DNA of 64,000 bases from Candidatus Omnitrophota bacterium. GTDB lineage: Bacteria; Omnitrophota; Gorgyraeia; Zapsychrales; JAKLDJ01. The position numbers and the translations under genes were made by a program. A model generated the notes under the pieces. It was not told the origin of the DNA. It searched no databases and was given only the letters and a program-made list of their open reading frames with translations. The stretch is from assembly GCA_022703585.1 (NCBI GenBank), contig JAKLDJ010000001.1:374891-438890 (forward strand). Direction: 5' to 3'. Positions 1 to 53,299 of the stretch are shown here, in pieces (the first letter of the stretch is position 1; each line of letters opens with the position of its first letter).

Positions 1-3000
1 AGAATAAATGTGGCTTGAAACAAAGTGGTGAGTGAGCAAAGCGAGTCGAACCACAGCGGCAGGATTGACGGCAAGCAGGCGCGCTTTGGATGTTTTAACC
101 GCGGCCACCGATTGCGCAACCGGAGCCGCCATAACACTGCCGGGCCTGGCGCCTTCGAAACCATTCTGCAATACTTGTTCATTTTTTCCGACCTCATCCG
201 CGTAAGCGGTACCGGCGCCAAACAGGTTATTCAGCGCACCCAGAATCATATGAACCGGCATCATCAGAGGCGCGATCGGATTGAAGCCCTTGAACTGGTT
301 CGGAACCTGCGGTGCGACCGGTAATTTCGGCGCGGGAATAGTCGTTGCCGGCGGCAGGCTATTAACTGGGACTGTCCCCGCCTCAGCCCTGTTGGACCTC
401 GTCGAGGCCGGGCCCGATTTAGCTTGGGACCTGTCCCGTACCGAGCTTCGTACCATTGAAATCATTTTAGCCAGAGCCAAAGAGGCGATGATTAAAGGAA
501 GAATGCCCGGCATGGAGGCTTGCAGATTGCTATGGTCAGCCACGGCGGCAACAGTCTTATATTCCTGCATGCGAATCTTAAGGCCGGGTAATTCCTGCGT
601 CAAGGCAATGACTTCATTGAGGACTAAGCGGGTCGCATCGACATTGCTGGCGTACCAATGAGCGTTGGTGTTTTGCCCGCGGGAAATACAGGCGAGCATT
701 TTTTCATAAGAAATCTTGTCAGCGCTGCCGTTAAGACATTCTCTGATGGCATCGTTGACATCTGTGTCTTGCCCGATATGGTAAATACCAAACGCCAACC
801 GCCAGATATCCGCGTCACTCATCCTTGAACCAATCATCTTGGATATTCTGTCGTGGATATCCTTAAGAAGCATGATCGCTACCGTTGTATTGTCTTCGGC
901 GTTAAACGGGTTACGGCTTCCCTCGAGAGATCCGAAGAATTTCTCAAAATTCCTTCCCTTAACCTGGCTTACTCCCATATCCCAGCCTGTCGATTTGCCC
1001 AAGCCTTTTCTTTCAAGAGTGAAATATCTGTTTGAATTAATGGTAATGCGGCTCTGGTCGGGTGTTTCCATCATCCAGATAGCGATGATGCCCTCGGACG
1101 GAATACCGTGGGCGCGGGCAAGGTCGGCAAACCGAACAAAGGAAAGCGTGCGGCGGGCCGCAGCCTTATCCTGGGCGGTCAAGACATAATAGAGAGTCGG
1201 ATTTTTGCGTTCCCTGTCCGTCATGCCGCGCTTAAGAGCAATCCTGGCTTGCCCAAGCGCCTGTGCCGTATTGGCATCGGAACGGCGCATCAGCTGTGCG
1301 TAGAAAACCTCCAGCCTGTCAATGGTGCCGGCATAAATCAACGTCTCTAAAAGATCGCTGATCCGTTCAGGATGATTGGCCAGATTAGCTGTAAACCTTT
1401 CTTGATCTTTCGCAACCTCGGGCCTAAGATTCCACCCGGCTACCAATTCCTCCTTCTTGCCCCGAGGCAGAAGTGTCGATAAAACCGCAATCATCGTCGA
1501 GAATGTCCGGGTGTTATTGAGTGACCCGCTGAATGAATCCAGGCGATACGCGGCCTCGGTAAGCCGGGCTTTGAAATCTGCCATGGCCTGCTCGGCCTTT
1601 TCGGCTTCTTTCCGAATCCTACTGGCTTCTTCGATTTCAACAACCTTCTTGGCAATGCCATAAACTCCGGAGCCGGCGACCGCTAATCCGGCAGCTCCTT
1701 TGACCATGAGGCTTAAGAATTCCCTGCGGGTTTGCTCTCTTTGTCCTCTGCGTACCGCCATAGCGCGAATTTGGCGTGGCGCGGATTTGCGGCGGCTGTC
1801 GACAATAATCTTGGTGATACCGGCAACGGCTGCGGCTGCGCCGATAATGCCGGTGACTAAAGCGGTCTTTTCCACCGCGATCGGATCCATATACATCGCC
1901 CCGGCAGCAGCAACGACCGGCACGGCAACCAAAGGCCACGTCTTCTTTAATGATGAAATCTGAACGGGCTTGCGGTCACGGATGTGTTTATTAAAGAAGC
2001 GAACGATGTCATAGCTCATGAATCCGAGTGCCATGACAGTAAAGGCTACCGGCGCCAAGAGGCTGAAACCGTACACGGCCTCGCCTTCGGCGAGTTTCAT
2101 CGGACGGAGGATTTGTGTAAGAGAGCGAGGCGTCGGTAATTCCACCAAATCTTCCCTGGTTCTGTTGGCAACAGCCATAAACGTCGGGTCTTTTTTCTCA
2201 AAAAGTTCAACCAGGGCAAGATAAATCGGGAGTTCGAAAACGCTGCTTTCCATAAGGCGGAGATATTGTCTCTGGATAACAAAGGTCCTGCAGGCTTCGG
2301 CTGATATGGAAGAACCGTTTCTTACCCGTTCCCTTAATTCTCTGTGATAAGGCCTCAAGGTATCAAGAATCCCGTCAAAGCCGTCCGCCAAGCGCATAAC
2401 CGACGAGACCAGCCTGAAGGATTCTGCCGGTTTAGGGGCGTGCATACTTAAGATTACCTCCTGGGCCCCTTCGGGTAAGGCAATGCCCGATACGCGCAAA
2501 AGATCAATGCTGATCTGGCCATGTTCACGGGCGCGCTCGGTGTCTACTTTCGATAAGACCTGATCATTGCCATGGACGGGATCCCCTTCCTTCCAATAGC
2601 GGCGCCTGTCACTGAATACAGTAATAAGCTCTTCATCCAACTTGCCCAGATCGTGGCTAAGGCCGACAAAGTCTGCCAAAGCAATCTGGGCTGCGCCGGC
2701 ACAAAGTTGTTTATTCTTAAGAATCTCCCTGGCGAGAAGAGTTACGGCCATCTCGTGCTCAATAACCTGCAAGGTATAGTCAACCGAATGTAAGCTTGAA
2801 TAAAAACCTGTTTTGGAAACAGGAGCCCAGAATAAAGGCGACATATTAATAACCCGGCCTAAAGAAGTTCTTAAGAGAGTTCTGTTGGCATTTTCCCTGC
2901 CTCCCCACAGCTCGTTAAAGGCCATGATAAAGAACCGCGTTCTTTCCCGGTTGGGATTTCTAAATAAATCGAGAATAAACTTGGTATTGGTTATGAGAGC

Positions 3001-6000
3001 AGTCCTGGTATTTCCCTGCCGTACAGGGTAGGTAGCACCGATATGCCTGACGGCCCACAATACCCTTTCACGGGCGGCATTGAATTCCGACAGACTAAGC
3101 TGTGCCCAATGCCCGGAAGACTCTCCTGCCTCTTCGACCCGGGCTTGTGCCGCCAGGGTAAACAGCCCCATCAAGGCCGCGAAGGGCAGAGCAACGAGAT
3201 TAAAGGCGTTAAGATTGTCCGCGGCTTGGTTAAATAATTTCCGGCTTTCATCGGCGGTCAGTTCGCCGGATTTGATTCTTTCCTGCAAGAAATTCAAGGC
3301 AATAGTGATAATGCCGGACTGAAGAACAGCTTCTTTAATTCGTTCATCCCTCCCGGATTCCTTAAGTAATTCCGCCATCCCTGCCGAGCCCGCCACCTTG
3401 TTCCCGTAAATATCACACCAGGCTTTAGGCTCGCCAAAAAGCATTACCGGATCTCTGCCTTCATACCTTCCTTTATCTTGAGACACTCCGTATTCTTTAA
3501 CAGCTTTCACATAAATTTCTACAGCTTCCGCCACAGTCATATTCCGCTGACGCTCAACCAAAGCTTGAGAAACAGGATTTAAACTAAACGGTTCTTCATT
3601 AAAATCACTCATCATTGCCCTGTAGCGCTCTTCGTAACGGGCAATATTTATTTCGACATCGCTCATTCTCCTTGCTATCGCTATCCCTGCCAGCGGCATC
3701 GACGGCCCGGCATCGACGAGATTTTTGATTACCTGAAATACGGTCGCGCGGTTATAGTAGGTCTTTCCGGTTTGCAAATTCTCGGCAATCTTTTCCACGC
3801 GCCAGCCGCCGATTTTATGCGCTAACAGCTCAAGGGCTTCTCTGGCATCGTCAATCTTCCATTCGTAGCGCGGCAGGCCGACGCTTAAGGCAATCGAACC
3901 CCGGTCGCTGATCAGCTCTAACGCATCGTACAAGATCTCCACGGCCAAGTCAGGGTAGACATCATCAATGACATTTAAAGCAACAATACCCTTGATGGTA
4001 CCCGCACCGGCCAAGAGCGCCTTGGTGGCACCGGAAAGTTCGCCGAGCCGTTCGCTGATAAATTCGATGCCTTCAACCAGGCTTATGTACTGGGCCGGTA
4101 CCAATTCGGCGCTGTGGCTGCGTGCCATTGCCGGGTTATCGCAGTTCTCATAAATCGGGTCAATGCTGATAACCCTTGCCCCAAAAGCAGCTGCCGCAAT
4201 CATCGGCTCCATAAAGTACCTGCCGCCGACAAACACCACGGTATCGCCCTCGGCAATATTCATCGTGGCCATAAGTTTTACGGCATCCTTGGCAACATTC
4301 CTCTCCCAGCCAAGCTGGGCAATGACGGAATCAGCATCCTGCGCCATGCCGAATGCGAAAACAAACGGTACGAAGCTATTGAGAGATGAAGTTTCCCCTA
4401 ACTTGATACCGCTTAACGCTGGGGTGGCCGGTAAGCTGGCGAACAGCTTTTGTGTCATCGGCATTGAGAGCTTCCCAGGAGTTTTCTTTCCCATTGCGGG
4501 AGTAAACTTGCCCGTTGTGATTGAAGATAAGGAAGAGCCGAGTTTTGCCAGTAGCCTCTTCGCGGCCGGCGCCAAAGACGCAATCGTCTCCGCTAAATTC
4601 AACAACGTGATCGAATGTAATGTGTTTGTAGTCTGTCCTGTGACTGGTGACTGGTGTCTGGTGACTGGTGTCTGGTGATCTAATGTCCATAATGCACCTC
4701 CGTGGTCCGTCCCGACGATACGTCGGGACGAGATCTCGGCGAATTTGCTTTGCAAATTCGCCGGACTTTGTTTAGGTTTTTGGTTATAGTCATTCTGTGT
4801 AGGAATATTGTGAATTCCGTTGAAGGAAGAAACAGCGTTTAAGCGAGGCTTTACGCCGGATATAAAGGAAATAAATCCAGGAATCGTTCTGGTAGGATTG
4901 CTAACAGCAGTTGCGCTCTCGTTATCCACTCCGACACCCTTGTGCGAGGAGGGGCCGGCTGATGTCGAATTGCCGTGAATACCGGTTGAATTGCCCGCGG
5001 TACGATAGATAACCCTAACCCCTGTCCTTGCTTCTCCGAGAGTGAAAATCGGCTGATACAATACCGGCATGTTGGTGGCGGGCGCAAAGTGCATCGGCAA
5101 ACCCTTACCGCCGTTAGGTGTAGGCGCCACCGGCGGCACACCGTTCGCCGGCACATTCACCGGTATGGACTTAGGTTCGGCAGGCGCTGGAGCAGGGGTT
5201 TGCTCGGCCACAACTCCCCTATCCTCTCGAATTTTCCTCAGATCCAACGACGGCAACCCGGAATGCAGACCCTCTCGATTGTGAGGCTTGACACCCATTA
5301 TTTGAGTTAAGTTCTGGAGGGCCAGAGAGACACCCATAATACCGACCATCAGATTCTGGGATGAGACCGCCGCCAGGACAAAGAGGCCGCCGCCGACCAA
5401 GCCGATGGTCTGCGTTGTCTCAAGGCTGTTTTCTTTAAAGGCGTTGACGACCGAGGCAATGAATTGAGGGAACGTATAAATAGCAACATTGATAACGAAC
5501 GCCGACCCGAAAACCGGAGGAATCATTCCGCCGGCGCCTAAGAAAATCGCGGAAGGAACCGCAAACATCGCACCTGCAAATCCGATTCTCCATAACTTGG
5601 AACCTAAGCCGGAATAATCGGTCGGCTCCAAGAATGCCTGCAGCATACGGCCGCCGTCCATCGGATGAATAGGCAAGCCGTTAAAGAACCCAAGCATGAC
5701 CGTTAAGGTACCCAATTGGGTAAAGAAGTTGAGATTTCCCAATAATTCCCTAATCCCGCTGATATCTTTCATCGCGTTATTGATTTGTCCCAGGCTGGAG
5801 GCATGCACCAGATTTTTAGAAATATAATCCCATAACTGAAAGACACTTCCGTCGTGGGCCGCGGCCGGTAAATGATTCCCAACGATAGACAGGTTGCCTG
5901 TCGCTAAAACAGCCGCGAGATAGACGGCAGGAACAAAATAGGACATGACACGTAACGCCGAAGACTTCGCCGTCAAGCGGTGAGTGGCATACATGAGAGA

Positions 6001-9000
6001 ATAGAAACCGGCCACGCCGGCCACAGCCGGGAGCAGGCCAAAACCGCTCTGCATTAAACCTATCGTAAACCAGGTCGGGCCCATCAAGAACGTATCGCCG
6101 ATGGGGCCGACGCCGGCAACCCAAAACGCCTTAGCCGGAGTCAACTCGCTTAAGCCCTTGATGGTTGCCAAACCGCCCATGGCGGTAAATTCCATTTTCG
6201 AGGTAACCTTGCCGAAGCGGGCTGCCTCGATACTATGCCGGGGTTCGTGATTGATGAAAATCGCTATGACCGGAAGCATGGCGGCAGCGATTATCCCGGG
6301 AAGAGTAGCGCCGGCGCTAAAGAAGTACGCTGAACCCGCCAGAGGAACAATCATGGTCAAGCTGCCTCTGATCTGTGTCCTGTTGGACGAAATCCGTTTC
6401 GGCAACCTGAACAGGTCATGGGTTTTAAAGGCGCTTTCTCCATATAGGGTAAATTTATCAATATTGGCAATCATGCTGTCGCTCGCATATTGTTTCAAGA
6501 GGTGGCTGGCGACAGAAAGCGCGATACCCAATGACGCCGTGATAGCCATAACCATAACCGTAACAGCAGAAATTTCGGCCCCGGCTATGACAACAGAACT
6601 TACGCCAATCGATTTCGCGATTGAACCTAAGGCGGCTACGCCCGTACCGGTCTTCGCAAATCCCCACAAGCCCATACCTAAGAGGGCATTGCCCATCTGG
6701 GTGGCGCCGTGTGTCTTCGAGGTTACTCCCATCTTCTGTCCGAAGTAACCTAAAACGCCGTAGGTTAAATGCGCCATAAAACTGCCCTTCATAAGAAGGA
6801 AGACAGCGACGGATAAATTCGGGACCGCGAGATTCCATTTGGTAACCCTGACCGGTTTACCCGGGTTGTGGGCTCTGGAAGCCTGCCAGTCGGATAAGTT
6901 AAACCAGCTCTTAAGCTGTTCATGGTTTAAATGCATGCCTTTAAAGAATTTAATGCCGCTGACTTCGCCCATGTCCGATTTGATGGTTCTCTTTTCAACG
7001 GTGCCGTCTGTCTTTTCTTTGTTAATATCCAGAGCGGCTTTTAAGTCTAACCGTTTCGCGTTCGATGAGACCGTTCCTTGCATTCTTTGCGCAACATTTC
7101 TGTCTCTGACGAGCAGGCTGCCGGCATAAGAACCGTTGACGCTAAAGATAACATTGCCGCCGTTTTTAAACGCCGCGAAGAATTCTTCTTTGTTCGGGAA
7201 CCCATAGAAGTCGACCGTCCCATCTTCTTTTTCTTTGCCGAGCAATTGGCCGTGTTCGCTTAAAACAACGGCTGCGAGATAACCGTCTTGTTCGTCCGGC
7301 GCCCTTAAATACACCAGGCTGGGGCCTTGAGAAATGTGAGCTTGCTTGATGGTAGCGCTGGTGTGGAGATCTTCGATATATTCACGGTCTTCAGCTGTTT
7401 CGTCCGCAGCAAATTTTTCGTAGGCCGCCTGGGTGGTTATATCCATCTTTCCTTTAACCTTGTAACTTTCGGGAAGATAGCCTTTTGCCTTTAAGGCATT
7501 CTGGAATTTCTGCACCCGCTCCTTCAGTGAAAGTGAGAGTACATCTAATTCGACGCGGGATACGGTATACCCGGCCATGGAAGAATCAAATTGAGCCAGG
7601 ACCTGATTGATGTCACTTTCGTTAAATTCGCTCCAAAGAATTCTTCCGGCCTCGCTCCTGCCGTCTCTGACATTGTCAAAGTGGCGCTCGATCATAGCCC
7701 TGGTGAGTTTAAGCGGCGGCATGGCCCGTTCACTGTTTCTGGAAATCCCGCTTAAATTGGCAACCAGCGTCAACAGAGAGTCGGACACCTTCTTCTCTGC
7801 CAAGGCTTCTTTGACGGCAAACAACTCTTCATTGCTTAATACCCTCACCTTATCCGCCATCCATCTTAAGCTGCTGTGCTCCAAAAAGGCCTGCTGGGAT
7901 TCTATTGACCGTTCTTTGGCTTGGCGAAATGCGATGAATTCTTCCAGGTCACGGACAATATGGTTTCTGACAAACGGCACTATAACAGCCGGATTCTTCA
8001 GCTGTTTGATCATCTTGTTAGCCAAACCGTCTTCGTCGTCTTTCTCCAGGATCTTGCCAAGGCCCTCAAAGAATTGCCTTTCACCCTGGCGGACCATCGC
8101 ATCCGTTACCTCAGAGCGTGCCTGGGACATGTCGGCGATGGCTGAAATTCTGTCCAGGCCAAAAATTTCGGCCGCGTCTTTTAAGGTGTTTAACGCACGA
8201 GCCAAACCTCTGATTTGTTCGGAATAACTCTTCTTTTGGCCCAAAGACGGGGTCATGTCGACAAAGCGTTTTGTCTGCTCAACGACATGTCTTGCCTGCC
8301 GGGTTTTAAGAATTTGCGCTTTCTCCTCGTCGGTTAAATCCGGGCCGGCATAATCCACAACCATAGAACCGTCCTGGCTGGTTATCCTCTTTAAGCCTTC
8401 GCCCGGCTCAGGAACAGCACCCAGGTGCATTGAGGACGATTTTGTTACTGCTTCGTATTGCTGCCATCCCTCAATGCTTCTGCCTTCTTTGTCCTGCATA
8501 AAGGGTAATACCTGCCTGGAGAATTCACGAACGAGACTGATACCTTTTTGGACAAAGGAAGCATCGACAGCATCCATCTTAGGCTTGACCGCCTTGAGCA
8601 TGTCACGCGCCACGGCTCTATAATGTTTGACCGTCTCTTCTAATCCTTGGGTCCTCTCACCGACCATCAAAGACAGGATTCTTGATTTGGCGCCATCATT
8701 TAAGGTGTCATTGACCCCGGGAAGCGCGAGCATGATGTTGGCTTCGTCAATATGTTGATTCTTTAAAACATCAGCTTCAAGGCCGGCGGCGTTACGGGCA
8801 TATTGCGCGTTATCTGCTGAACCCAACCTCTTTGTTTGATCGACCAAGCTTTTTGCCCTTTGATTGAGACGGGTGAGGGCAACCGGTTCCTGGCCTTGCG
8901 CGTCTTTTTCGGCAAAGATATAAATGCCTTGCTGGCCAAAGGCAGAAGTTTTTCCGCTAAAGCGCTTATCGCCTTTTTCGCAAGAAACAACGTAGACGCC

Positions 9001-39000: not shown

Positions 39001-42000
39001 AGTCATGGTTCTGCCTTTACTCATGACATCATTGAATCTCTGGCTGAACAAACCGGTCAATTCTGTATTTTCTCCTGAAGGGCTGACAACGCCCGCATCC
39101 AGAGACAGCCTATCCGGCCCCACCAAAGGAACTGCCGAACCGTCCTGGTTTTTTAACATGAGCGTTTCCCTAAAGATTCCCAAGTGTGCCTGGTCAGCCT
39201 CGGAAAGATCTTCAGGAAGGTTAATGATAGTTTGGCCCGGGTCAATGAAGCTCTGCGCTCCCGCAATCTTATCGGTGGCGTTGCCGTCTTTGTCAATTAA
39301 TCCCTCTTTTTTCGCCTGGGCCATTGAAAGCATCTTTGTTTCGCCGTCAGCATAGGTTACCGTAACCTTATCCGTGTCATGCGGCATGCTCATCCTGATG
39401 GTATTAAGATTCCTTCCGTTTTTAAGAAATCTGGGATTGGCCAAATGCCAGGTCTTATTACCGTTGTGAAAATCCTGTTCGTAAGCAAAAACGATGTTCT
39501 TTGACGGGCCTATCCGCCCGGGTTTTGCTTTGCCGTCGGCATCGATCAGACCTTGTTCCCGGGCAAAGGCTTCAGCAACTCTAACGCTGGACCCGTCCTG
39601 ATAGGTGACGTTGACATTGCCAAGCATCGCGATGCTGCGCACGCCTTGAGCAGCGTAGATAATTTCTCCGGCATCATTGCTCTGGGCGGCGATTTTGCCG
39701 TTTGCGTCAATGTATCCTTTGTCTTTTGCCTCGTCCCATGACATCGTTTGTTTAGTGCCATCGTTGAGAACAACCTCAAAAACATTACGCGGGTCCACGG
39801 TAATGTCCCTGATGCCCTTGCTCTCTATCCTCGCCATACGCCGAGGGGTAAAGCCTGTCCATTCGGCAATTCCAAGAACAACCGCGGATTTCTTGTAGGC
39901 CAAACGCTCCTGAAATTCCCTTTTGCCTTCGGGACTATCAAGGGCGATTCCCTTATCTGTTATGGCTTTTTCTATGGCGGCTACGTTGCTGTCTTTATTC
40001 GCGACCAAAGAACCGATCCCGTACATGGCCGGCGTAAAGAAGGTAGCCTCGAGAAACGCGGTAGCGTTATTGATGGTCCCGGCGTTTAAACTGGAGAAGA
40101 AATACTGGAGCTGATTAGCGGCGGGATTAATACCTGAGAGTATCTGGCGATTGTAGCTTTCTTTAAGTTCTTCGTCGTTCAGCCGCTCATCGCTGGGCTT
40201 TTCGTTGTTGATCTCTTTCATGTCTTCCCATAGCGCTTTTGAGCGGATAACAAATTCCGGGGTAATCCCGCTCATCTCTGCCAAGTGAGCTGTATAGCTG
40301 TTAAAGTCATTGATTCCCGACCGGCCGCCGATTCCCGGAGTGCCGTATTGTCCGAATTTGTTAGGGGCTGTGCCGCCGACAGTATAATAATTGTAAGCCG
40401 CAAGCTGAATCCGGTTGGTCGAAACGCTGATGACAGTTCCCCAAAATCCCGTATCGCTTGCCAGAGTTGTATCAGCCTGCTTTTCTGTCTTTTCTTTATC
40501 GTCAGCAACACCGCTAAAATCCTGGCTGGGGAATATAAATTTGTCGACAAGTGCCGTTCCCAATCCTGTCGCAAGAGACGTAGTAAGAAGGGCAAGGGTG
40601 CGCATCTCCATCGGCGATAGGCCGGTTTTATTTCTCGTTCCGTTATTCCAGGCCCCTTTCATGTTATGCTGTTCTATGGAATCAAGGAGCGCGCCTACCC
40701 CGGCAGGAAGAGCGCTCATAAGTACGGCGGAAGTAATTCGCTTAAAATTCCCCCAGAACCCTGTTCGGGTATCCGCTTCGTCTAACTGCAAGTCTTTCGA
40801 ATCTCCCTTACCGATGGTGTACCGGGCCGCTAACGACCCCAAAGAGCTTCCGACCTGGCCTCCTATCTGACTTAATCCTAAAGAGAAATTGCTCTGCGGA
40901 TTAATATTGTATTTCTCATAAAGCCATTGACGCATATAGGCACTGGCGATACTGCCGGTCAAGTTTGGAATTGAAGTCACCAGCGTTTGTTTCATCGCGT
41001 CGCCAAGACCGTAAGGCGTAAATTCGTTAGTTAAGTCATCGCGCTCACCCATGTTAAACGTTTCCCGGTAATCCGTACCCAATTTACTATCGCTAAGAAC
41101 AACCAAGGGCGTCATGACGATATTCGTCCCAAAGGAAGACACGGCACCAACAACAGAATTCCGCACCATGGGATTCTTTATCTTCTTGAATATTCCCCAT
41201 TTCTCGACCCACTGGGCCATTTTAAGCTTGATATATCCCGTGGCAAGTCCGAGGCCAAGACCTGCACCAAGACCCTTAAAGAAAGTTGCTGTGGCGCTCT
41301 GATTGGCAAGTGCATTCTGTGCAGGGGTCAAAGATTCCCCGGCAGCCTGTGCGGATCTCGCCGCCGAACGCGCCTCCATTTTTCCCCCCACATACATAGT
41401 CGCCACGCTTAGAGCCGTGCTGACAATAAAAGCGGTGCTCGGGTCCCACCCCCATTTCATGACCCCCACCTGGGACAAGGTGCCGTAGAAATTTGAGGCG
41501 GCCGAATAGACATTCATCATGCCCATAGTCCCGCCCGTCGCCAGATTAAAGGCTGTCTGTACACCTGCGCCGATCAAAAGGTCTTGGGTAGATGTGATCC
41601 CCGGCAGCTGATCGGAGCGGCTGATCCATTGCGAACCCCAGACAAAGGCCATCATCGAATCCGTCACCGCCATGGTCCGGATGGCATCATCAATGCCGGG
41701 GGCCAGGACAAAGCCGCTTAATTCTTCGGCAAATTTTTCTTTTGGTGTTGACAGCGCCCGGCCGATATCGGTGTAGTAGACATTGTCATCGTCCATGCCG
41801 GTAACGGTGACAAAATGTTCGGATTTAAAATTGGCGATAAAAGGTGTTTTAAGTTTGAGGATTTCTTCCGGAGAAAGCTTGAGCGTGGTAAAGTCCAGCC
41901 CGTAACTTTTGACCACTTTGTTGATGGCATACAGCGATGTCTTTAACTTCGGTTCTCCGGGCTGGATAATATTGCTTAAAATGTCCACCAGCAAAGTCGC

Positions 42001-43721: not shown

Positions 43722-44720
43722 TTATTTTACACCCAATTGTCTCATTGGATTATTGTTGGTAAAATCGAGGAAAATAGGGGCGCCGACAAGAATGGCGACA
43801 ACGGGGAAAATACAAAACAAGAGCGGGACCAGCATCTTCATGGGAGCCTTAAGGGCAATTTGTTCGCCTCTCCTAAAGCGGGCCACGCGCATATCTTCCG
43901 AAATGATAGTCAGGGCCTCCGCCACCGAAGTACCCATGCGGTCAGCCTGAATAAGAGTGCGGGTAAATGTGGTTAAGTCCGGCAATTCGTATTTTTTTCC
44001 TAAGTCGGCTAAAGCAACCCTTCTGGGTTTGCCGACATTAATCTCCTGCATGATTAAATTCATCTCGTCAATTAAGACCGAGGGCTTCGATTTGTCGACA
44101 ACCCACTTGAGAGCCAGCATAAAATCCAGCCCGGCATTAACGCACAAGCCCAAAAGGTCGATGGTGTCGGGAAGTTCTTTGACAATAGACTCTTTGATTT
44201 TCTTCGTCCTGGCCTTAAGCCAAAACTCCGGTACCAAATAACCGAAACAAAAACCAAAACCCGCCCAGGCAAATATCATATCCGGCTTTATAAGCCTGAA
44301 GGTAAGGGCCAGCACCGCGGCCATGCATAATTCTTTTATGAGAAAAAATCCTTCCGGGGTAAGGTCAAGCTTGGCAATATTAAGGTCCCTGGCCATTCTT
44401 TTTCCCAAAGGGCCGAGGGTAAAGGGCCGGTTAAACATCGAAAAATGCCGGAATGCCGTCGAGAGGGTGGATCTTTTTTTCTTGTCAATCTTGACCTCGG
44501 GCTCGACATTAAGCGGCTGCAAACGCAGGCGCGTCGTCGGCGTCTCAAAGGGCGCGAAAAAAAGAACCAGGCAGATAACAGAAAGAAAAACAAATCCTAA
44601 AATAATGGCGAGCATAGGCTCCTTATATAAGACCGAATTGACCCTGCTTCGCCAAATACTTAACATGTTTGGCTTCGCAGGGTTATACCCCCTACCTCTT
44701 TGTTTCGCTTCGCTACACAA
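43722..44720 (-). CDS. tadC: TadC-like Flp pilus assembly inner-membrane protein (T2SS F-domain family).
   Basis: 332-aa ORF with a polytopic membrane profile and a C-terminal GspF/TadC-type region (...LIQADRMGTSVAEALTIISEDMRVARFRRGEQIALKAPMKMLVPLLFCIFPVVAILVGAPIFLDF). Sits directly downstream of the tadB-like gene. Confidence 0.75.
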   Translation of the reverse strand: MCSEAKQRGRGYNPAKPNMLSIWRSRVNSVLYKEPMLAIILGFVFLSVICLVLFFAPFETPTTRLRLQPLNVEPEVKIDKKKRSTLSTAFRHFSMFNRPFTLGPLGKRMARDLNIAKLDLTPEGFFLIKELCMAAVLALTFRLIKPDMIFAWAGFGFCFGYLVPEFWLKARTKKIKESIVKELPDTIDLLGLCVNAGLDFMLALKWVVDKSKPSVLIDEMNLIMQEINVGKPRRVALADLGKKYELPDLTTFTRTLIQADRMGTSVAEALTIISEDMRVARFRRGEQIALKAPMKMLVPLLFCIFPVVAILVGAPIFLDFTNNNPMRQLGVK

Positions 44721-44739
44721 AGCGAAACAGTAGGGGTCA

Positions 44740-45597
44740 TTAAAACTCCTTAAACGTACTGATCCTCCATATCATAAAAACGCCCAAGACCTCCAGGAAA
44801 ACAGCCAGAATAAGAAGCATTCTCCCCACATCAGAATTAATCAGCTGGTCAAAGAAATTTTTGTTGGAAGAAGTGACCACGGCCGCAAAGGCAATGGGCA
44901 GGATCGACATGACCACTCCCTGGATTTTCCCCTGAAGGGTCAGATTATCGATATTTTGCTTAATCTTTTTGTTTTCCCGTATGGTGGTAACAATGCGGCT
45001 AAAAATAACAGGCAGGTTGCCGCCGGTTTCTCGGGCCAAAAGAATCGCGGTAATCATATGGTGCAGCGCCGTCGAGGGCATCCGGCTGTAGAGGCGCGCA
45101 AATGATTCTTCCAGGGAAATCCCCATTTTGTTTTCGCCTAAAAGGGTCCCGAATTCCTGGCTGACGGGAGCGGGCATTTCTTCTTTGACCACCTCCAGGG
45201 CCTGGATTAAGCTTAAGCCTCCTTTTAAAGAGCTGGATAAAATCATCAGGGTGTCTACCAGCTGGTCTTCGAATTTGGCGGTGCGCTTTTGGGTCAAGAA
45301 TTTAACATAGACGCTGGGCGCCAAAAATCCGACGACAGCGCCGGCGACAACCCCTAAAAGCTTGATCTCGGCAGGAAACGCCATAAATCCGGTAACAGCC
45401 AAAATAATGGGCCCGACCGTGTAAAAGAGTATGACACGCCTGACCCGGACCTTGATAAACATCTCATCCATGCGTTCGGCAAGTTCCCGGGAACGTCTTT
45501 TATTCATCTCTTCGATGTTTCCGTAGATGGGGGGAATGACCGAAAAAGAGAATACGGCCACGGAACCGAATATCAACAGCATGATAATAAGCCACAT
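44740..45597 (-). CDS. tadB: TadB-like Flp pilus assembly inner-membrane protein (T2SS F-domain family).
   Basis: 285-aa ORF with N-terminal TM helices and a T2SSF-like core (...LGENKMGISLEESFARLYSRMPSTALHHMITAILLARETGGNLPVIFSRIVTTIRENKKIKQNIDNLTLQGKIQGVVMSILPIAFAAVV...). Paired with the tadC-like gene, 19 nt apart. Confidence 0.75.
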   Translation of the reverse strand: MWLIIMLLIFGSVAVFSFSVIPPIYGNIEEMNKRRSRELAERMDEMFIKVRVRRVILFYTVGPIILAVTGFMAFPAEIKLLGVVAGAVVGFLAPSVYVKFLTQKRTAKFEDQLVDTLMILSSSLKGGLSLIQALEVVKEEMPAPVSQEFGTLLGENKMGISLEESFARLYSRMPSTALHHMITAILLARETGGNLPVIFSRIVTTIRENKKIKQNIDNLTLQGKIQGVVMSILPIAFAAVVTSSNKNFFDQLINSDVGRMLLILAVFLEVLGVFMIWRISTFKEF

Positions 45598-45642
45598 AGG
45601 ATTTATTCTCTAACCAAAATTACCTTTAACAAAAATACCCCA

Positions 45643-46047
45643 TTAGTTACATTGTGGATTTGCACAAGGGGTCACGCAATACTCGTTACAATGCTCCTCG
45701 CAGCAGTCGGCATTATGTCCGCACGCCGTGTTGGGGTTAGGGCTATGACTGCCGCAAGGATTCCAATTATTATGATCCATGCAATTATGTGCGCATTGAT
45801 CGGAATAGTTCGTATGGCATTGGGGGACATACCACCTTCCCAGGTCTTCGCTCCAGATGCATTCAACCGTTTTTTTAGGGTCGTATTGCATCCCGAAACC
45901 GAAGGAATCGGCTGACGCCTTCCAGCGCCCGGCAAAACCGCGCAGGACATACTGCCGTCCGGCGACAAAAGCCGCGATCAGAATAACGATAAGCATCGTG
46001 TATTCGATCATGGAAGCGGCTCTTTTATTACCTTTACGCATCGTCAT
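45643..46047 (-). CDS. Flp-like pilin paralog with a Cys/His-rich C-terminal extension (12 Cys in the last roughly 60 aa).
   Basis: N-terminus MTMRKGNKRAASMIEYTMLIVILIAAFVAGRQYVLRGFAGRWKASADSFG parallels the xxxxEY plus hydrophobic helix plus RGIQGRWK pattern of the flp array genes. C-terminus ...CHTNYSDQCAHNCMDHNNWNPCGSHSPNPNTACGHNADCCEEHCNEYCVTPCANPQCN. The start overlaps the stop of the upstream TadG-like gene (TAATG), indicating translational coupling. Confidence 0.55.
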   Translation of the reverse strand: MTMRKGNKRAASMIEYTMLIVILIAAFVAGRQYVLRGFAGRWKASADSFGFGMQYDPKKTVECIWSEDLGRWYVPQCHTNYSDQCAHNCMDHNNWNPCGSHSPNPNTACGHNADCCEEHCNEYCVTPCANPQCN

Positions 46048-49000
46048 TAAAATTCGTCACTGCACCTTGAAAATTTGACGTTAAACCCGTACGGGTCCTC
46101 CTGGTGAAAGAAGTACTCCGCGCAGGTTTTACTCATTACGCCCCGGTAGAGAAAGTGGCGTACAATATTATAACACGCCGTTATCTCCGGCGGATCGGCA
46201 ACATCATTAATCATAAAAGCACCCTGATTACCGGGATCACACGCGGCTTCCAGTTGCGTAATACGTTCCGGGGTAATGCTGTCCCGGTCCGCGTGGTGGG
46301 CAATAAAGCGCCAGATAGGAACCTTGTTGGCAAACGTCAAAAGGGCGTCTTTGTCCTCGTCATAGCGGATAACGCGGGATTTGACCGCGCCGCCCCTGAA
46401 ACAAACTCTGGCATTGCTGCCTTCATGATACTCCCCGGGTTCATCGCAAGCGCTATTGGGCGCTCCGTCGGAGTATTGGTCAAAACTATCTCCCAGGGTA
46501 TAGCATTTGCGCGTACCCCAGTTTTTAGTATAGGTCTTAATCCACGGCCAACTCGGCTCATGGGTATAGCCCTGAGATGCCCTCGCACATTTTCCGTTGC
46601 ATCGGGTGGGCAAGCGCGCCTCAACCTGCACAATATGCCAGTAGCCTTTCCCGGCAAACTGCCCGGGCCGCGGCGTCTCCGGAGGGTCACTGCGCCAGGC
46701 GTAAATCGCGTATGGGGCCAGGTCCGCGTCGTCCTCAGGATTCACATTGACTCTGTTATACTCAGTCGTAACACCCGTGACTGCGGGACTGTTAACAAAA
46801 GTATGAAATGCGTCTCTATAGCGGTTGAGGGTGGCGATAACGCTGGTGACATTATTAATTGTCCTGTCCAGAAAATCCGCACGAAAACGATGCATGGCGG
46901 CCTCATTCGCCTCGCCATGCCAGTACTCCTGTACACACGCCAACTCAGCAGCCTGACAGGAGCCGCTTAAGTTGCATGGGTTTCGGAGCGAATAGCAGGC
47001 CGGATAGCTGTAGTTGCAATGAGCATAACAGTCGGCGTATTGGTTCGCAGTAGTATCATGCGCCGGAGCCCTGGTATTGCGATGGCAATCGGCGATCTGA
47101 CTAATTGTGCGGGCGGGGTTGTAATTCGGGTTACATTCGTAACTACTATTTCCGTGATAACTACGATTAGCCCAATCCGAAAGAGTATTGCTCCATTCAT
47201 TAAAAACACTGCCCGAACTCCCGTAATCGTCCAATACCCCGCCAGGCCCTACCCAGGAAAGAAATTCCGGGTACCAGGATAGAAATGACCTCGCAAGTTC
47301 GTCGGATCCTTGCGCCAATATCCCTAAACTCCAAGAAGTAAAATCGGTGAGACTGCGGCGAAGCAAATCGGCCTCATCTTCGCTCCAAAGAACCTTGTAG
47401 TACCGCTCGGGCCACGTCCCCGGGATGCTCTCGCATTCGTTACTATAAATCGAACAGATCCCGGCCGACTCTGTACATGAGGTGCAGGTCCTATCGCACT
47501 CCTTTCCCGGACAGGGGGTGCTGTAGGGCCAGTTGTCGTCATCTTTGGTGCAGTATTGGACATCACCTCTTTTCCACCATCCCGGGGGATACGTTGATTC
47601 ACCGGGACATTTTAGGACTTCATTTCCGTCAGGGGGAACAACGGGTTTTCTTATTCCTGACGCGTTGGGAACATTATCAAAAGTGCTGGGTACAAAACAG
47701 GTAAGCGGCGACGCATTATCACATGCGTAGGGGAGCTCGAGATGGCCCACCGCGGCATAGGGAAAATCATTATTATTGCAGTAGGCATAGGTGTTATTCC
47801 AGACATATTGCGGTGTAGCCCAATAGCAAAAATCAACATAATGCTCAAATTCATCATAGATAGCGCTAAAATCAAGGCTTGCCCTGGCTGCCGCGTCCCA
47901 TAGCGTCGGGAAAAATGCCCCTTTCAGGTCATCGCGCCTGAAACGAAAAGGATGCGTGGTGCGGTCCAAAATCTGCGGCCCGTTAGGATTGAGCGGGTTT
48001 GTCCTGTAATACGGTGTTTCATCGTCGTGGCCAAGAAACTTTCTAAAAGACAAGAAACCGATATTCGGGTCTTCATGGAGGGCATTAAAGACGTACGGAT
48101 AACCGCCCGTAGAATACCCGCCAGCAATATTGGGATAGATACCGGAACAGTTTGCTGAGCTGCCGCAAGAGGGCGTAGCGGGATCGGGACAATCAGAACC
48201 GCCATCGCAACAGCACGGCCTCACGTTTGGCGGAACACAGCAGCGATTGCATTCAGCGGGAGGATTGGCTCCGCAACAAGCGCTTGCATGCTGCGGAGGA
48301 ACGGGCGCTGTGGTTTCGGAACAATAAATCAGGGTAGGATCCGCAACCGCAAAAAGGTCGGTGTGCACGACCCGTACCGGCTCAGGGGGCGGATTAGGAG
48401 GAACCGTGGGCGGCTGTTCATAGTATATGTACGGCTCTAAGAGAAACGCCCCCAGGGCCCTCTGGAAATCCTGCAATATGTCACGATTGAGGATGCGCCT
48501 GTTCGCAAATTTTGCGTTCATCCGCTGGGTGTAAAAATACCCGAAACGGTTGACCTCTTCGTTGAGTATACCGTCCATGTCGATGTCTTTGGTGTCGAGA
48601 AGCTCGCTGGTATCATCAACGCTATATTGAAGAGCCATCTGAATTCCGCGTTCGACAAATTGGTCTGCCGGCGTCTCAAGCTGTGCCATTTGTTTATTCC
48701 ATAAGGAATTCATACCGGGCTGAAGGACAAGCGCCTGGAGCAGAATGGAACCAACCGAGAGAATCAGAAAGATAATTCCTTTAGCGGTAGCAAATGCCGC
48801 AAAGGTAAGCGTCCCTCCGGAAGTAATGGAAATAACAGTGGCAATGACAAGAATGATGAGGGCTAGTACTGCCGCTGCGACTCCTGTCCATCCGCAGACG
48901 GTTAAATCATCTCCGGCGTTAGGGTCGGGATTTCCCTCGGGCCCGCCCAACTGGCCCTGATAAACACTTTCGGCATAGCTGGCCATACCCGAGGCCAAAA

Positions 49001-49298
49001 AAGCGGCGCTGATATTGGAGGCCATGGTCACCTGGGTTTTTGTCTGCGAGATTCTGCCCAGGTTGAGAACCACGGCATAAAAGATAAATAAAATCGCCAC
49101 CATCACAATCAGCAATAGGGCTACCTGACCCGCCTCGGCTCCCCCTCCATCGCTTCGCGACGAGATCTCGGCGAAGCCGGACCTCGTCGAGCTTGCCCTG
49201 AGTCCCTCGATTTTGCTCGGGATAAACTTCGTCGAGGCTGGGCCGGTTCGACTTGAGGATAAAATCTTCTTTGTTATTTTGTTTAAAAAGCTAAGCAA
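46047..49298 (-). CDS. Giant TadG-like pseudopilin or tip-adhesin candidate, 1083 aa, with a cysteine-rich ectodomain.
   Basis: The N-terminal segment ...GAEAGQVALLLIVMVAILFIFYAVVLNLGRISQTKTQVTMASNISAAFLASGMASYAESVYQGQL matches the TadE/TadG N-terminal helix pattern. The remainder is Cys-dense (for example CCGANPPAECNRCCVPPNVRPCCCDGGSDCPDPATPSCGSSANCSG) with many aromatic residues. Confidence 0.65.
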   Translation of the reverse strand: MLSFLNKITKKILSSSRTGPASTKFIPSKIEGLRASSTRSGFAEISSRSDGGGAEAGQVALLLIVMVAILFIFYAVVLNLGRISQTKTQVTMASNISAAFLASGMASYAESVYQGQLGGPEGNPDPNAGDDLTVCGWTGVAAAVLALIILVIATVISITSGGTLTFAAFATAKGIIFLILSVGSILLQALVLQPGMNSLWNKQMAQLETPADQFVERGIQMALQYSVDDTSELLDTKDIDMDGILNEEVNRFGYFYTQRMNAKFANRRILNRDILQDFQRALGAFLLEPYIYYEQPPTVPPNPPPEPVRVVHTDLFAVADPTLIYCSETTAPVPPQHASACCGANPPAECNRCCVPPNVRPCCCDGGSDCPDPATPSCGSSANCSGIYPNIAGGYSTGGYPYVFNALHEDPNIGFLSFRKFLGHDDETPYYRTNPLNPNGPQILDRTTHPFRFRRDDLKGAFFPTLWDAAARASLDFSAIYDEFEHYVDFCYWATPQYVWNNTYAYCNNNDFPYAAVGHLELPYACDNASPLTCFVPSTFDNVPNASGIRKPVVPPDGNEVLKCPGESTYPPGWWKRGDVQYCTKDDDNWPYSTPCPGKECDRTCTSCTESAGICSIYSNECESIPGTWPERYYKVLWSEDEADLLRRSLTDFTSWSLGILAQGSDELARSFLSWYPEFLSWVGPGGVLDDYGSSGSVFNEWSNTLSDWANRSYHGNSSYECNPNYNPARTISQIADCHRNTRAPAHDTTANQYADCYAHCNYSYPACYSLRNPCNLSGSCQAAELACVQEYWHGEANEAAMHRFRADFLDRTINNVTSVIATLNRYRDAFHTFVNSPAVTGVTTEYNRVNVNPEDDADLAPYAIYAWRSDPPETPRPGQFAGKGYWHIVQVEARLPTRCNGKCARASQGYTHEPSWPWIKTYTKNWGTRKCYTLGDSFDQYSDGAPNSACDEPGEYHEGSNARVCFRGGAVKSRVIRYDEDKDALLTFANKVPIWRFIAHHADRDSITPERITQLEAACDPGNQGAFMINDVADPPEITACYNIVRHFLYRGVMSKTCAEYFFHQEDPYGFNVKFSRCSDEF

Positions 49299-49361
49299 TC
49301 TTTCTCCTTGAATCTTGTTACGTCAAATTTGCCCTAACCCTTTATTTTAAAAACCTTAAAC

Positions 49362-49625
49362 CTACCATTTGTTGAAAACCAAGTTTAAAGGGGTCGGTTT
49401 GGAAAAATTCGTTCTCAGCTGTCTTAACGGGCCTTCGCCCTCATTCTCCCAATTCTCGTTGATACCCATATTCAGAGTAGTTTCGTGGGCGACCTGACGC
49501 TCGGATAGGCTTAACCCCACCCAGCGAAATGCCATGATGCACCCGTAAAAAATCAGAAGCAGGACAACAAAAGCAAACGTGAATTCGATGATAACCTGCG
49601 CGTCATGTTGTTTAGAGTTTTTCAT
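49362..49625 (-). CDS. tadE: TadE-like minor pseudopilin (87 aa).
   Basis: MKNSKQHDAQVIIEFTFAFVVLLLIFYGCIMAFRWVGLSLSERQVAHE... shows a TadE-like N-terminal hydrophobic helix after a charged leader. Confidence 0.6.
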   Translation of the reverse strand: MKNSKQHDAQVIIEFTFAFVVLLLIFYGCIMAFRWVGLSLSERQVAHETTLNMGINENWENEGEGPLRQLRTNFSKPTPLNLVFNKW

Positions 49626-49684
49626 TTTAGCTGTCAGCTTTCAGCTGTCAGCTTTCAGCTGCTGAGAGCTGATAGCTGGTGGCT

Positions 49685-51115
49685 TTACTTAAATGGATTC
49701 TTATCCGTACTGACATCCGTCACCCATTTTTTCTTAGCCCGGTCCTCAATTTTACTTCGTATGTGAAGAATTTTAGTGCTTCGGTCAAAACAAGTCTTAA
49801 AAACATTGTCATTGCTATAGCAACAACTCCCCGCATCGCAGCAGGCTTCAACCGGATTGCTGCCGTTACACATACGCCCTGTATCATTGCTGAGCTGTAT
49901 CTGCCGCTCGATAACCTCAATGCTATCCTGTTTCCGGGTCTGACGGACATACTGCCTGGTGTCGGGGGTAAAAAGCTTGCCTTCTTCTACCCGAAGATAT
50001 GTACCGGTATCCCCGGGGCCGGCCGGCTTGCCATAAACATACAAAAATGATTCCGGTTTCAAGCCCGGCTGAGGCTTACCGTTTTGCCTATCGCGCGTGT
50101 CATAGGTATTATCAATATCGCCTTCTTGCTGGTCAATAACTGTAACCTCCTTAAAAGCCGCATGGAACATGGCGCCAGACCGGACAAGGTTGTGGTATCC
50201 CTCCGCTCCTTCGTCACCTACAAACCAATCGATTGTCTCCGGGATGGGCTCTTTAAGAGTATATGTAAAGTTGTTTGTATCGACCATGCGGACAATGGAC
50301 TCTTCCTTAAGATCTCCGTCAACATCCAGGGATGTATTCTTGCCGTCATTAAAATCAATTTCCGAGTTGGTCATAGGGATGGCGTACCACTCCCAGGTAA
50401 ACTCGTCTGTTTGAGCCGGTTCGACATCCATCCCCGCAGTACATCCGACGGCAGCACATTGGGTCAGGGTGTTGCGGTCCAAATTAAACCTGTCTTCCAG
50501 GGTATTTCGAGTATCGCCGGTTGCCAGAGGTGAACATCCAAAGGGATTCAAGCTGCAAAAATTGTCGTCACCATAAACTATTCTCGTATATGCCTTTGCG
50601 CAATTTATTGCGCCCCCGCTAGGGCCATTTCCACAGCCGGCAGAGTCTGATATGATTATCGGAGTGGGCAGGCTACCGCAAAATCCAGTCACAAAATTAC
50701 AAGTTTTAAACTGGGCAGTCGTAAAGGTAAAATGCTGGCCGTTGATAAAAACATCCATGATGGAAAGGTTTTCGGGGTGGTCATGCTGGGTGGGCATAAA
50801 AAGATTATTGGTAAAAGCCCCCGCCCCGCTGGTCACAAAAGGCATACGCGACGAAGTTAAATACCGGCCGCTACTTGAGACATCGGCGTCTTTTCTGTCT
50901 TCGATATATAGGATGCTGGAAAACATCCGCGAGGCGTTTCCCCCGGTGCCGGACCGAAAAGACTGCTCAAAAGCCAGCCGCATGGCCCCCAGCGCCTGGT
51001 TTTGGGCATAATTAAAATTAAGCGCCATGCGAATAATCAGGCCCAAAACAAAAATCAGGATAGCCCCGAAAATCGCGAGTTCGGAAGCCGTCTGACCTTT
51101 GGGAATGCATTTCAT
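49685..51115 (-). CDS. TadE/TadG-like pseudopilin, 476 aa, with a Cys-rich extracellular domain.
   Basis: N-terminus MKCIPKGQTASELAIFGAILIFVLGLIIRMALNFNYAQNQALGAMRLAFEQSF is TadE-like. The body contains CNFVTGFCGSLP, AGCGNGPSGGAINCAKAY, FCSLNPFGCSP and CAAVGC motifs, and the tail has EACCDAGSCCY. Confidence 0.6.
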   Translation of the reverse strand: MKCIPKGQTASELAIFGAILIFVLGLIIRMALNFNYAQNQALGAMRLAFEQSFRSGTGGNASRMFSSILYIEDRKDADVSSSGRYLTSSRMPFVTSGAGAFTNNLFMPTQHDHPENLSIMDVFINGQHFTFTTAQFKTCNFVTGFCGSLPTPIIISDSAGCGNGPSGGAINCAKAYTRIVYGDDNFCSLNPFGCSPLATGDTRNTLEDRFNLDRNTLTQCAAVGCTAGMDVEPAQTDEFTWEWYAIPMTNSEIDFNDGKNTSLDVDGDLKEESIVRMVDTNNFTYTLKEPIPETIDWFVGDEGAEGYHNLVRSGAMFHAAFKEVTVIDQQEGDIDNTYDTRDRQNGKPQPGLKPESFLYVYGKPAGPGDTGTYLRVEEGKLFTPDTRQYVRQTRKQDSIEVIERQIQLSNDTGRMCNGSNPVEACCDAGSCCYSNDNVFKTCFDRSTKILHIRSKIEDRAKKKWVTDVSTDKNPFK

Positions 51116-51179
51116 TTTTCAATTCACCATAGATTATCTTTATCGCCCCGAAAAACGAACCCGTCATTACAAAAGAAAA

Positions 51180-51494
51180 TTAGTACCCAAACACCTTCAT
51201 GGAGCCGTCTTGCCGCTCGACGGAGCTGGAATCATCATACCGGTTCGTCCAAAATTGGCCTGCCCCTTGCTGGACCGTGATCCTGGTCTGAGAATTTTGC
51301 TCCATGGTATACAAAATATTCGTTGTCGTATTGGTACTGTCGTACTGATCGCCTAAGTCCTCAACCGAGGCCTTCCACCGCCCCTGGATAGCCCGCTTAA
51401 GATACACCCCTCCGACGATGAGGGCCCCCATGACCACGATTAATAAAATAGCATATTCGGTTAGAGACTGGCCGTTTTTTCTTATCCGCAGCAT
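51180..51494 (-). CDS. flp: Flp-family pilin paralog (104 aa).
   Basis: MLRIRKNGQSLTEYAILLIVVMGALIVGGVYLKRAIQGRWKASVEDLG carries the class-III prepilin motif G/QSLTEY followed by a hydrophobic helix. Confidence 0.65.
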   Translation of the reverse strand: MLRIRKNGQSLTEYAILLIVVMGALIVGGVYLKRAIQGRWKASVEDLGDQYDSTNTTTNILYTMEQNSQTRITVQQGAGQFWTNRYDDSSSVERQDGSMKVFGY

Positions 51495-51515
51495 TCCTAT
51501 CCCTCTTAAGTTTCT

Positions 51516-51860
51516 TTATTCCTGGTTAACAACACCGCCCTTGGTAACCGCGTTAGCGCGCGTCCGGGCCACGTCCCGGTAGAGGTATTCCAGGGAAGTG
51601 ACACCTTTTGTTTCCCGGACCTCTTTGGTCGAGCGCCCCCGCCTGTCACTAAATGTCCCCAACAGATAGCTTTTTTCCTCGTCCACTTCCTGATCGGCGT
51701 TGCTTTGCTGGCCCAGCTGGTCGGCGGTTACCTTGACGATAGATTGTATCCCGCGTTTGACCAAAGGCTGCATGGCCGCCAGCGCCACGGCAACGATGCC
51801 GATCAAGATGATGTATTCCGATATCGTTTGGGCCTCTTTTTGTTCTTTTAAAATAAACAC
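51516..51860 (-). CDS. Flp-like pilin paralog (114 aa; A instead of G at the cleavage position).
   Basis: MFILKEQKEAQTISEYIILIGIVAVALAAMQPLVKRGIQSIVKVTADQLG has the same architecture with AQTISEY. Confidence 0.5.
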   Translation of the reverse strand: MFILKEQKEAQTISEYIILIGIVAVALAAMQPLVKRGIQSIVKVTADQLGQQSNADQEVDEEKSYLLGTFSDRRGRSTKEVRETKGVTSLEYLYRDVARTRANAVTKGGVVNQE

Positions 51861-51880
51861 ATGTACCCCGTCAAAATTCC

Positions 51881-52270: not shown

Positions 52271-52389
52271 ATTCTCTACTGAATATTATATTATTTTTAA
52301 AGAAATCCGGAGTAAAAAAATAAAAGCTTTTAGAAATGCCGGCCGGTCTCATTCGTTGTTGCCCGCAAATAGTATTTGGCGTTTGCTGC

Positions 52390-52424
52390 TTTGGGTGGGC
52401 GGCCCTAAGGGCCGCCCACCCAAA
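52390..52424. promoter_or_regulatory. Perfect 16-bp-stem, 3-nt-loop palindrome between two pilin genes; an attenuator or RNA-stability stem-loop (no U-tract follows).
   Basis: tttgggtgggcggccc taa gggccgcccacccaaa lies 87 nt downstream of the stop of the 52511..52837 pilin gene and upstream of the next pilin gene. Confidence 0.5.
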
Positions 52425-52510
52425 CCGATTTATCCTTATCTCCTTTTTAAAAAAAACTGGCTTACCCAAAAAGCGAGGCTTCCCGGGTAAGCCAGTCTTT
52501 GGGGATCTTT

Positions 52511-53257: not shown

Positions 53258-53299
53258 CGATTTTCACCTCCTAATAAATGACACGTTAAATACTTCCTT

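Follow-up and report, generated by a model that had tools for sequence, protein, structure and literature searches.

The analysed stretch, hereafter the window, comprises 64,000 bp of the Candidatus Omnitrophota contig JAKLDJ010000001.1 (assembly GCA_022703585.1, positions 374,891 to 438,890 of the forward strand). On the minus strand it carries the beginning of a giant open reading frame (ORF) and, directly upstream of the latter, a cluster of genes for a Tad/type II secretion system (T2SS)-like pilus. Here, we describe a segment of the giant protein, approximately residues 13,797–13,992, that judging by its motifs and profile matches probably has a diverged lysozyme/SLT-like fold of the GH23 type, i.e., the type found in family 1 lytic transglycosylases (LTs). 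The best overall explanation of our observations is a strongly diverged, membrane-tethered SLT/GH23 module that opens the wall of the cell producing it, and for this complete scenario the chances seem to us about even.

The giant gene and its SLT-like module

No stop codon interrupts the minus-strand frame between base 42597 and base 1, and its first ATG lies at 42558. It runs off the window, and the 14,186 codons observed are a lower bound, i.e., the ORF encodes at least 14,186 residues inside the window. In the ENA assembly ERZ761563 (NODE_2; 1,168,148 bp, or 1.17 Mb), gene calling gives this ORF a product of 85,803 residues, and in other assemblies it is called either as a product of 77,848 residues or as shorter pieces running off the locus. 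The longest ORF in the survey of West-Roberts et al. (2023; bioRxiv 10.1101/2023.11.21.568195), from wastewater, has 85,804 residues, one residue apart from the ERZ761563 product. Five neighbor proteins are identical to entries from Candidatus Omnitrophota metagenome-assembled genomes. Since the full product of the gene has 85,803 residues, the SLT-like module is located about one-sixth into the protein and not close to its C-terminus. The precomputed Pfam field of the 85,803-residue product is empty.

The original prediction, made from sequence alone, had placed an SLT-like lytic transglycosylase domain at 720–1060 and given its translated peptide (GIIAIWMMETPDQ...GIYHIGQD). The peptide matches exactly, on the minus strand at 766–1092 (residues 13,823–13,931, with the ATG at 42558 as residue 1). 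The span overlaps the peptide, but it clips the putative catalytic Glu codon and the catalytic-helix motif, and it also leaves out a colinear C-terminal motif, HWYASNV. The domain-sized unit is therefore listed here with wider boundaries (Table 1). The proposed order of four SLT family motifs is indeed present, in the form of ET, GVSQV, NPFNAEDNTTVAIMLL, and AFGIYHIG. It is extended by a fifth motif, HGIPSEGIIAIWMMET, preceding the four, and a sixth, WYASNV, following them, both colinear with the SLT domains of Escherichia coli.

For comparison, we aligned the catalytic domains of five family 1 enzymes from E. coli K-12 (Slt, EmtA, MltC, MltD, and MltF) and of MltB. The module retains the putative catalytic Glu (E13831, in ...AIWMMET), GVSQ, the helix motif that follows it, IYHIG, and the C-terminal Tyr, and it has a 16-residue insertion past the catalytic helix. 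At the sequence level, the hydrophobic helix motif HGIPSEGIIAIWMMET is closed by Glu followed by Ser or Thr, here E13831–T13832, and E13831 aligns with the invariant Glu of the E. coli SLT domains. In GVSQ, the Gly and Gln of GLMQ are kept and Met is replaced by Ser; in IYHIG, the Tyr and Gly of AYNxG are kept and Asn is replaced by His, at the canonical spacing. In its middle part, the alignment allows two registers. The alternative one, with LERKGLGKSTG placed on GLMQ, was favored by the five-sequence profile and by hhalign; we rejected it, the construct made for it yielding no match to PF01464.

The order of motifs common to the module and family 1 LTs (PF01464, GH23; in E. coli Slt70, EmtA (MltE), MltC, MltD, and MltF) can be written as G-(V/I)-(D/P)...AI...E-(S/T), G-x-x-Q, (D/N)-P/x-E-x-N...L, Y-x-x-G, and a C-terminal Tyr. 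The spacing past the GLMQ-like motif is similar and both are extracytoplasmic, in the case of the module by prediction. On the other hand, the family 1 LTs are soluble or lipoprotein enzymes, whereas the module belongs to a giant protein, as a loop that connects two of its transmembrane helices, and its motifs deviate as ET, GVSQ, and YHIG. In its catalytic helix the module is closest to family 3 LTs (SLT_2, PF13406, GH103; E. coli MltB/Slt35), with HGIPSEGIIAIWMMET corresponding to YGVPPEIIVGIIGVET, Glu-Thr included. However, only 23 residues match; the remainder of the 292-position profile is unmatched, and a complete SLT_2 domain would exceed the module in length.

These substitutions (ES to ET, GLMQ to GVSQ, AYNxG to IYHIG), together with the insertion beside the active-site helix, are what one would see in a degenerate SLT-like fold that has lost catalysis and merely binds glycan strands, anchoring the membrane region to the sacculus. 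We regard this as very unlikely. The module still has the Glu, the Gln, and both Tyr residues (that of AYNxG and the C-terminal one), and these positions are conserved in the E. coli SLT domains, with the exception of MltF at the Gln; moreover, a Glu-Thr pair occurs natively in MltB of E. coli, which is annotated as a lytic murein transglycosylase. A bolder proposal, unlikely as it stands, is that the module represents a distinct, unrecognized branch of the lysozyme-like superfamily, combining an MltB-type (Glu-Thr) helix with a family 1 remainder and a lineage-specific hairpin insertion, and that, being part of a polytopic membrane region of the cargo, it serves a protein of more than 85,000 residues as its own wall-opening tool on the way through the sacculus of the producer.

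Profile evidence and chance resemblance

The evidence for the SLT reading is consistent, family-specific, and sub-threshold. In a scan of the trimmed native segment of 148 residues, SLT_2 was the sole match among 24,736 Pfam families (E 0.17, 11.5 bits), and the match falls on the catalytic-helix motif RFADLARAHGIPSEGIIAIWMMET, at profile positions 77–99. SLT_2 matches scored 11.5–13.3 bits (E 0.05–0.17; positions 77–99/106 of 292), below the gathering score of 24.3 bits. In a BLASTP comparison with E. coli MltB, the best local match paired RAHGIPSEGIIAIWMMET with QVYGVPPEIIVGIIGVET, both ending in Glu-Thr.

Deletion of 14–16 insertion residues in silico brings out the family 1 profile. For five of the six insertion-deleted constructs, PF01464 SLT was the top match (12.9–17.5 bits, E 0.0032–0.084, profile positions 7–98 of 117), and the sole other Pfam family matched was SLT_2. 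Among PHROGs, only phrog_342, annotated as “internal virion protein with endolysin domain”, was matched by a construct (E 0.28, profile positions 19–96 of 1235, toward the N-terminal end). This phage LT was matched only by an insertion-deleted construct and not by the native segment, and the window shows no phage context. Scans of Pfam and PHROGs with the trimmed native segment and with most of the deletion constructs matched no models other than those of LTs.

Two controls address the specificity of these matches. Firstly, 93 other tiles of 148 residues and 40 shuffles gave matches to 93 Pfam families, each from one sequence, and no SLT family was among the 25 most significant of them. Secondly, we constructed a deletion-tolerant null, in which one stretch of 12, 16, or 20 residues was removed from each sequence where this raised its score most, every third position being tried. 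In the set of 473 sequences (the native segment, 300 shuffles, and 172 half-overlapping tiles across the 14,186 residues), the module ranked first with both local SLT profiles, scoring 13.8 bits (null maximum 11.7) with one and 10.5 bits (null maximum 8.6) with the other. Hence, the SLT-like reading of the original prediction stands as the best available one, the module being the most SLT-like part of the 14,186 residues once an insertion is tolerated, but no curated threshold is reached.

A number of results weigh against this reading. In searches of Pfam and NCBIfam with the last 700 residues and of PHROGs with 217 residues, no transglycosylase was matched even at E ≤ 10, and PF01464 had no match on native segments of 700, 217, or 148 residues. 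A further NCBIfam search likewise yielded no SLT match; it did yield FlgH at E 0.025, which is presumably spurious, and therefore such E-values mean little alone. A Pfam search for SLT or lysozyme-like domains, proposed originally as a check, reached no curated threshold: its best score, 17.5 bits against the PF01464 gathering score of 21.3, was obtained on edited sequence only. Neither phmmer against Protein Data Bank sequences, run with native and edited segments, nor tblastn (E ≤ 10) against all plasmid and phage records retrieved anything relevant or an LT gene, respectively. The distance between the Glu and GVSQ is 31 residues, compared with approximately 15 in the E. coli SLT domains, and so lies outside the 12–16 residues or so past the Glu at which GLMQ is looked for. 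The Ser in place of the Met of GLMQ and the His in place of the Asn of AYNxG count on the same side. Finally, the region had been chosen in the first place for the same motifs that the profiles detect, and the tests are not fully independent.

Alignment statistics for the native sequence are likewise weak. With hhalign, the native segment aligned colinearly with the five E. coli SLT domains over the catalytic helix, NAEDN/DPETN, and YHIG/YNAG, at P = 0.08; scores as high were reached by 13 of 240 shuffles and by 9 of the 145 other tiles taken from this protein. Local HMMs gave 2–4 bits, and in the absence of a deletion the module was not the top region. Under ordinary scoring, the native resemblance to SLT is indistinguishable from chance.

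The trivial explanation, then, is that of an unrelated, mostly helical periplasmic domain in which short SLT-like motifs were spotted by eye over 14,186 residues. All the native statistics above, the noise level indicated by FlgH, the unreached curated thresholds, and the two registers in the middle of the alignment speak in its favor. Still, we consider it somewhat unlikely: it has to accommodate LT models as the sole Pfam and PHROG families matched by the trimmed native segment and most deletion constructs, the first rank of 473 with two profiles, six colinear motifs whose spacing is canonical except for one insertion, and an extracytoplasmic location, as a wall enzyme requires.

Structure prediction, for which the original prediction had asked in order to locate the catalytic Glu, adds little to the diverged SLT-like fold preferred here. 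A single-sequence AlphaFold model of the module was unusable (pLDDT 36.6). When guided by an alignment of 29 enterobacterial SLT proteins with the native segment, AlphaFold produced a model with pLDDT 62.6 and pTM 0.66, in which the Glu (residue 45) ends the helix 35–45; with the family alignment as input, this is circular. Residues 47–96 of the guided model, which cover the insertion and GVSQV, are below pLDDT 50, and the top three Protein Data Bank matches found by Foldseek, all MltF of Pseudomonas aeruginosa, have a TM-score of about 0.5 and E 0.14–0.55; like the unusable model, these values weaken the case. Because the input alignment imposes the family, the guided model counts only as “not incompatible” with it.

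Homologs of two segments were not found at E ≤ 0.01 or E ≤ 10 in a word-indexed protein search, nor was there any at E ≤ 0.001 in an exhaustive phmmer search of 1.84 billion representatives. Scans of genome and metagenome contigs yielded no related loci for the module, and no internal paralogs of it were found within the 14,186 residues. The protein searches never retrieved the query's own protein, though its gene is on record, and giant proteins seem to be unindexed; therefore, modules in other giant proteins would be invisible to such searches, and these negatives do not establish the module as an orphan.

Membrane placement and possible role

The module is flanked by two transmembrane helices that enclose a loop of approximately 379 residues. 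The 30 residues preceding the first helix, FLSLMVKGAAGLAVAGSGVYGIA, have a net charge of +7 and the 30 residues following the second (RSSVRDRSQAK...) of +4, compared with +1 and 0 for the flanks on the loop side. Based on this asymmetry and the positive-inside rule, the loop is predicted to be extracytoplasmic, where a peptidoglycan enzyme must be. The part of the loop ahead of the module (160 residues, 13,637–13,796; 1171–1650, minus strand) appears helix-rich and belongs to no detectable family. In Slt70, helical domains likewise precede the catalytic domain.

The segment before the first helix, MAVRRGQREQTRREFL..., resembles a twin-arginine signal. More broadly, MAVRRGQREQTRREFLSLMVKGAAGLAVAGSG (1720–1761, minus strand; residues 13,600–13,636) has a twin-arginine motif and a hydrophobic region, as at the start of a Tat-exported protein, yet it is situated 13,600 residues into the ORF. 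An independent start at the internal ATG at 1761 was rejected, as no Shine–Dalgarno-like sequence is present in front of it. The segment may go back to a formerly independent exported gene that was fused in, or it may be a simple membrane-helix flank; we read it as an ordinary flank because the ATG has no ribosome-binding site.

Two roles had been proposed for the predicted domain, namely breaching the wall of another cell and remodeling the wall of the producer. Since the module is held between two transmembrane helices, the latter is favored, whereas direct breach of another cell's wall would need proteolytic release. In the scenario that we prefer, the module would reside at the extracytoplasmic (periplasmic) face of the producer's inner membrane, tethered at both ends beneath the producer's own wall. 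It would cut glycan strands of peptidoglycan near the membrane and so open the sacculus locally, allowing the extracytoplasmic parts of the giant protein and/or the Tad-like pilus to pass. The sequence, the motifs with their order, the weak but family-specific profile matches, and the charge asymmetry are observations; the fold, the catalytic competence, the substrate, and the choice of own wall over prey are inferred. A complete peptidoglycan pathway is kept in Omnitrophota (bioRxiv 10.64898/2026.06.07.730766).

Specialized LTs that open the sacculus for envelope-spanning machines are represented by VirB1 in type IV secretion, EtgA/IpgF in type III secretion, and FlgJ/SltF in flagella. The role suggested here would be similar by analogy, but these LTs are small separate proteins that are recruited, whereas the module would be an integral, doubly tethered loop of the cargo protein itself.

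A genuine SLT-like weapon, released (e.g., by the C39 or M50-like protease domain) or displayed at a contact site and degrading the murein of prey or host, seems clearly improbable to us. Both protease domains are indeed present in the same polypeptide, so that release is possible, if unproven. A Tad/T2SS-like secretion cluster is conserved beside giant genes. Degradation of prey walls has been hypothesized for giant Omnitrophota proteins, and SLT domains are mentioned in that context (West-Roberts et al., 2023). On the other hand, transmembrane helices with positive cytoplasmic flanks on both sides would tether the module below the producer's own wall and outer membrane, and there are no known cleavage sites. 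The one characterized prey of the phylum in the papers cited here is a methanogenic archaeon. A weapon of this type would need prey with murein walls. To our knowledge, methanogenic archaea of this kind have no murein, and SLT enzymes are not known to act on pseudomurein.

The closest known counterparts of the protein that carries the module are the giant Omnitrophota proteins termed “Archaeovorins”, in which the SLT domain was noted as “less common” (West-Roberts et al., 2023). This protein shares with them the phylum, a length of more than 30,000 residues, an N-terminal C39 domain, many transmembrane helices, and an upstream T2SS/Tad-like locus, whose conservation upstream of giant genes was described in the same study. 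That study gives neither proteins nor positions for its SLT domain. The present module is probably not among the reported ones, because a standard Pfam scan misses it and the precomputed field is empty. SLT domains in giant Omnitrophota proteins being already known, what is new here is probably this unusually divergent, unannotated module.

The proposal bears on how polypeptides tens of thousands of residues long cross a Gram-negative envelope and on what they do there. If the proposed role is true, an inner-membrane-tethered wall-cutter would rank among the few regions of the 85,803-residue protein with a testable biochemical function, and it would separate two current ideas, digestion of prey walls and self-assembly through the producer's own wall. 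The value of the proposal is that of a specific, cheaply testable hypothesis for an unannotated segment.

Other domains and the upstream pilus cluster

Coordinates of all features are collected in Table 1. A Peptidase_C39 domain close to the N-terminal end of the giant polypeptide was detected with E 1e-7, and E 1e-10 in a second scan. It is preceded by a hydrophobic segment (residues 46–64), and more than 15 further hydrophobic segments occur in the window part of the protein. The M50 (site-2-protease)-like membrane domain contains both signature motifs, and its Peptidase_M50 score of 25.3 bits is slightly below the gathering score of 27.2. In the contig scans, this region matched only protease motifs of 40 residues in unrelated bacteria. 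The M50-like domain is a possible processing protease of the giant protein; together with C39, it makes two candidate self-processing proteases within one polypeptide.

Table 1. Features on the minus strand of the window, with positions in window coordinates and residue numbers counted from the ATG at 42558.
Feature	Position	Strand	Residues, basis, and remarks
SLT-like (GH23-like) module, domain-sized unit	~583..1170	-	residues 13,797-13,992; profiles, deletion-tolerant null, alignment
Catalytic-helix motif RFADLARAHGIPSEGIIAIWMMET	1063..1134	-	SLT_2 profile positions 77-99; E. coli MltB QVYGVPPEIIVGIIGVET
Putative catalytic Glu codon, E13831, followed by Thr (T13832)	1066..1068	-	aligns with invariant Glu of E. 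coli SLT domains
16-residue insertion FTLERKGLGKSTGWDM relative to canonical SLT domains	976..1023	-	between conserved Ser region and GLMQ-like motif
GVSQV, counterpart of SLT GLMQ(I/L/V)	961..975	-	motif comparison, Pfam SLT alignment
NPFNAEDNTTVAIMLL, counterpart of SLT (D/N)PxxN(I)xxGxxYL helix	865..912	-	register ambiguous by 3 residues
AFGIYHIGQD, counterpart of SLT AYNxG	766..795	-	Tyr and Gly retained, Asn replaced by His; canonical spacing
HWYASNV, colinear with conserved C-terminal Tyr motif (Slt RGYVKNV, EmtA PRYIYKL)	640..660	-	alignment
Transmembrane helix FLSLMVKGAAGLAVAGSGVYGIA	1651..1719	-	residues 13,614-13,636; preceding flank with twin-arginine-like QTRREFL
Predicted extracytoplasmic loop holding the SLT-like module	514..1650	-	residues 13,637-14,015; positive-inside analysis
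Transmembrane helix	451..513	-	residues 14,016-14,036
Giant ORF, N-terminal 14,186 residues	1..42558	-	start codon ATG at 42558; continues beyond base 1 of the window
Peptidase_C39 domain	41704..41949	-	residues 204-285
M50 (site-2-protease)-like membrane domain	5623..6279	-	residues 12,094-12,312; HEPRH (residue 12,104) and PMDGG (residue 12,298)
Tad/T2SS-like pilus cluster	43722..62896	-	two TadB/C-like T2SSF, T2SSE ATPase, secretin, CpaB/RcpC, Flp pilin

Of the further domains that characterize Archaeovorin-type proteins, no divergent SecA DEAD helicase, glycosyltransferase, methyltransferase, or NUDIX domain was found in the first 14,186 residues (E ≤ 0.01–0.1), the remaining ~71,600 residues being encoded outside the window. 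HTH_29, HTH_23, HTH_24, and other families were matched at 20707–20808 (minus strand; residues ~7,251–7,284), with E-values down to 1e-6 for a 148-residue tile. These matches of the helix-turn-helix DNA-binding type sit in the middle of a protein that is otherwise expected to be membrane-bound or extracytoplasmic. A weak match to DUF4347 was observed at 17431–17703 (minus strand; residues 8,286–8,376), with E 5e-5 for a 148-residue tile and 19.3 bits, against a cutoff of 24.6, on a 5,000-residue piece.

The following genes of the Tad/T2SS-like cluster are all on the minus strand. Its secretin (60353–62014), named “TonB family protein” by NCBI, has a C-terminal TonB_C domain (E 6e-17), which looks like an unusual fusion. 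The T2SSE/CpaF-like ATPase (58192–60351; domain at residues 367–646) is fused to an N-terminal P-loop domain of the ParA/MinD type (AAA_31/ParA, residues 4–240). Three large ORFs of the cluster have no Pfam match, at 46047–49298, 49685–51115, and 54438–57374; they encode 1,083, 476, and 978 residues, respectively, and each of the four assemblies that were inspected has gene calls for them.

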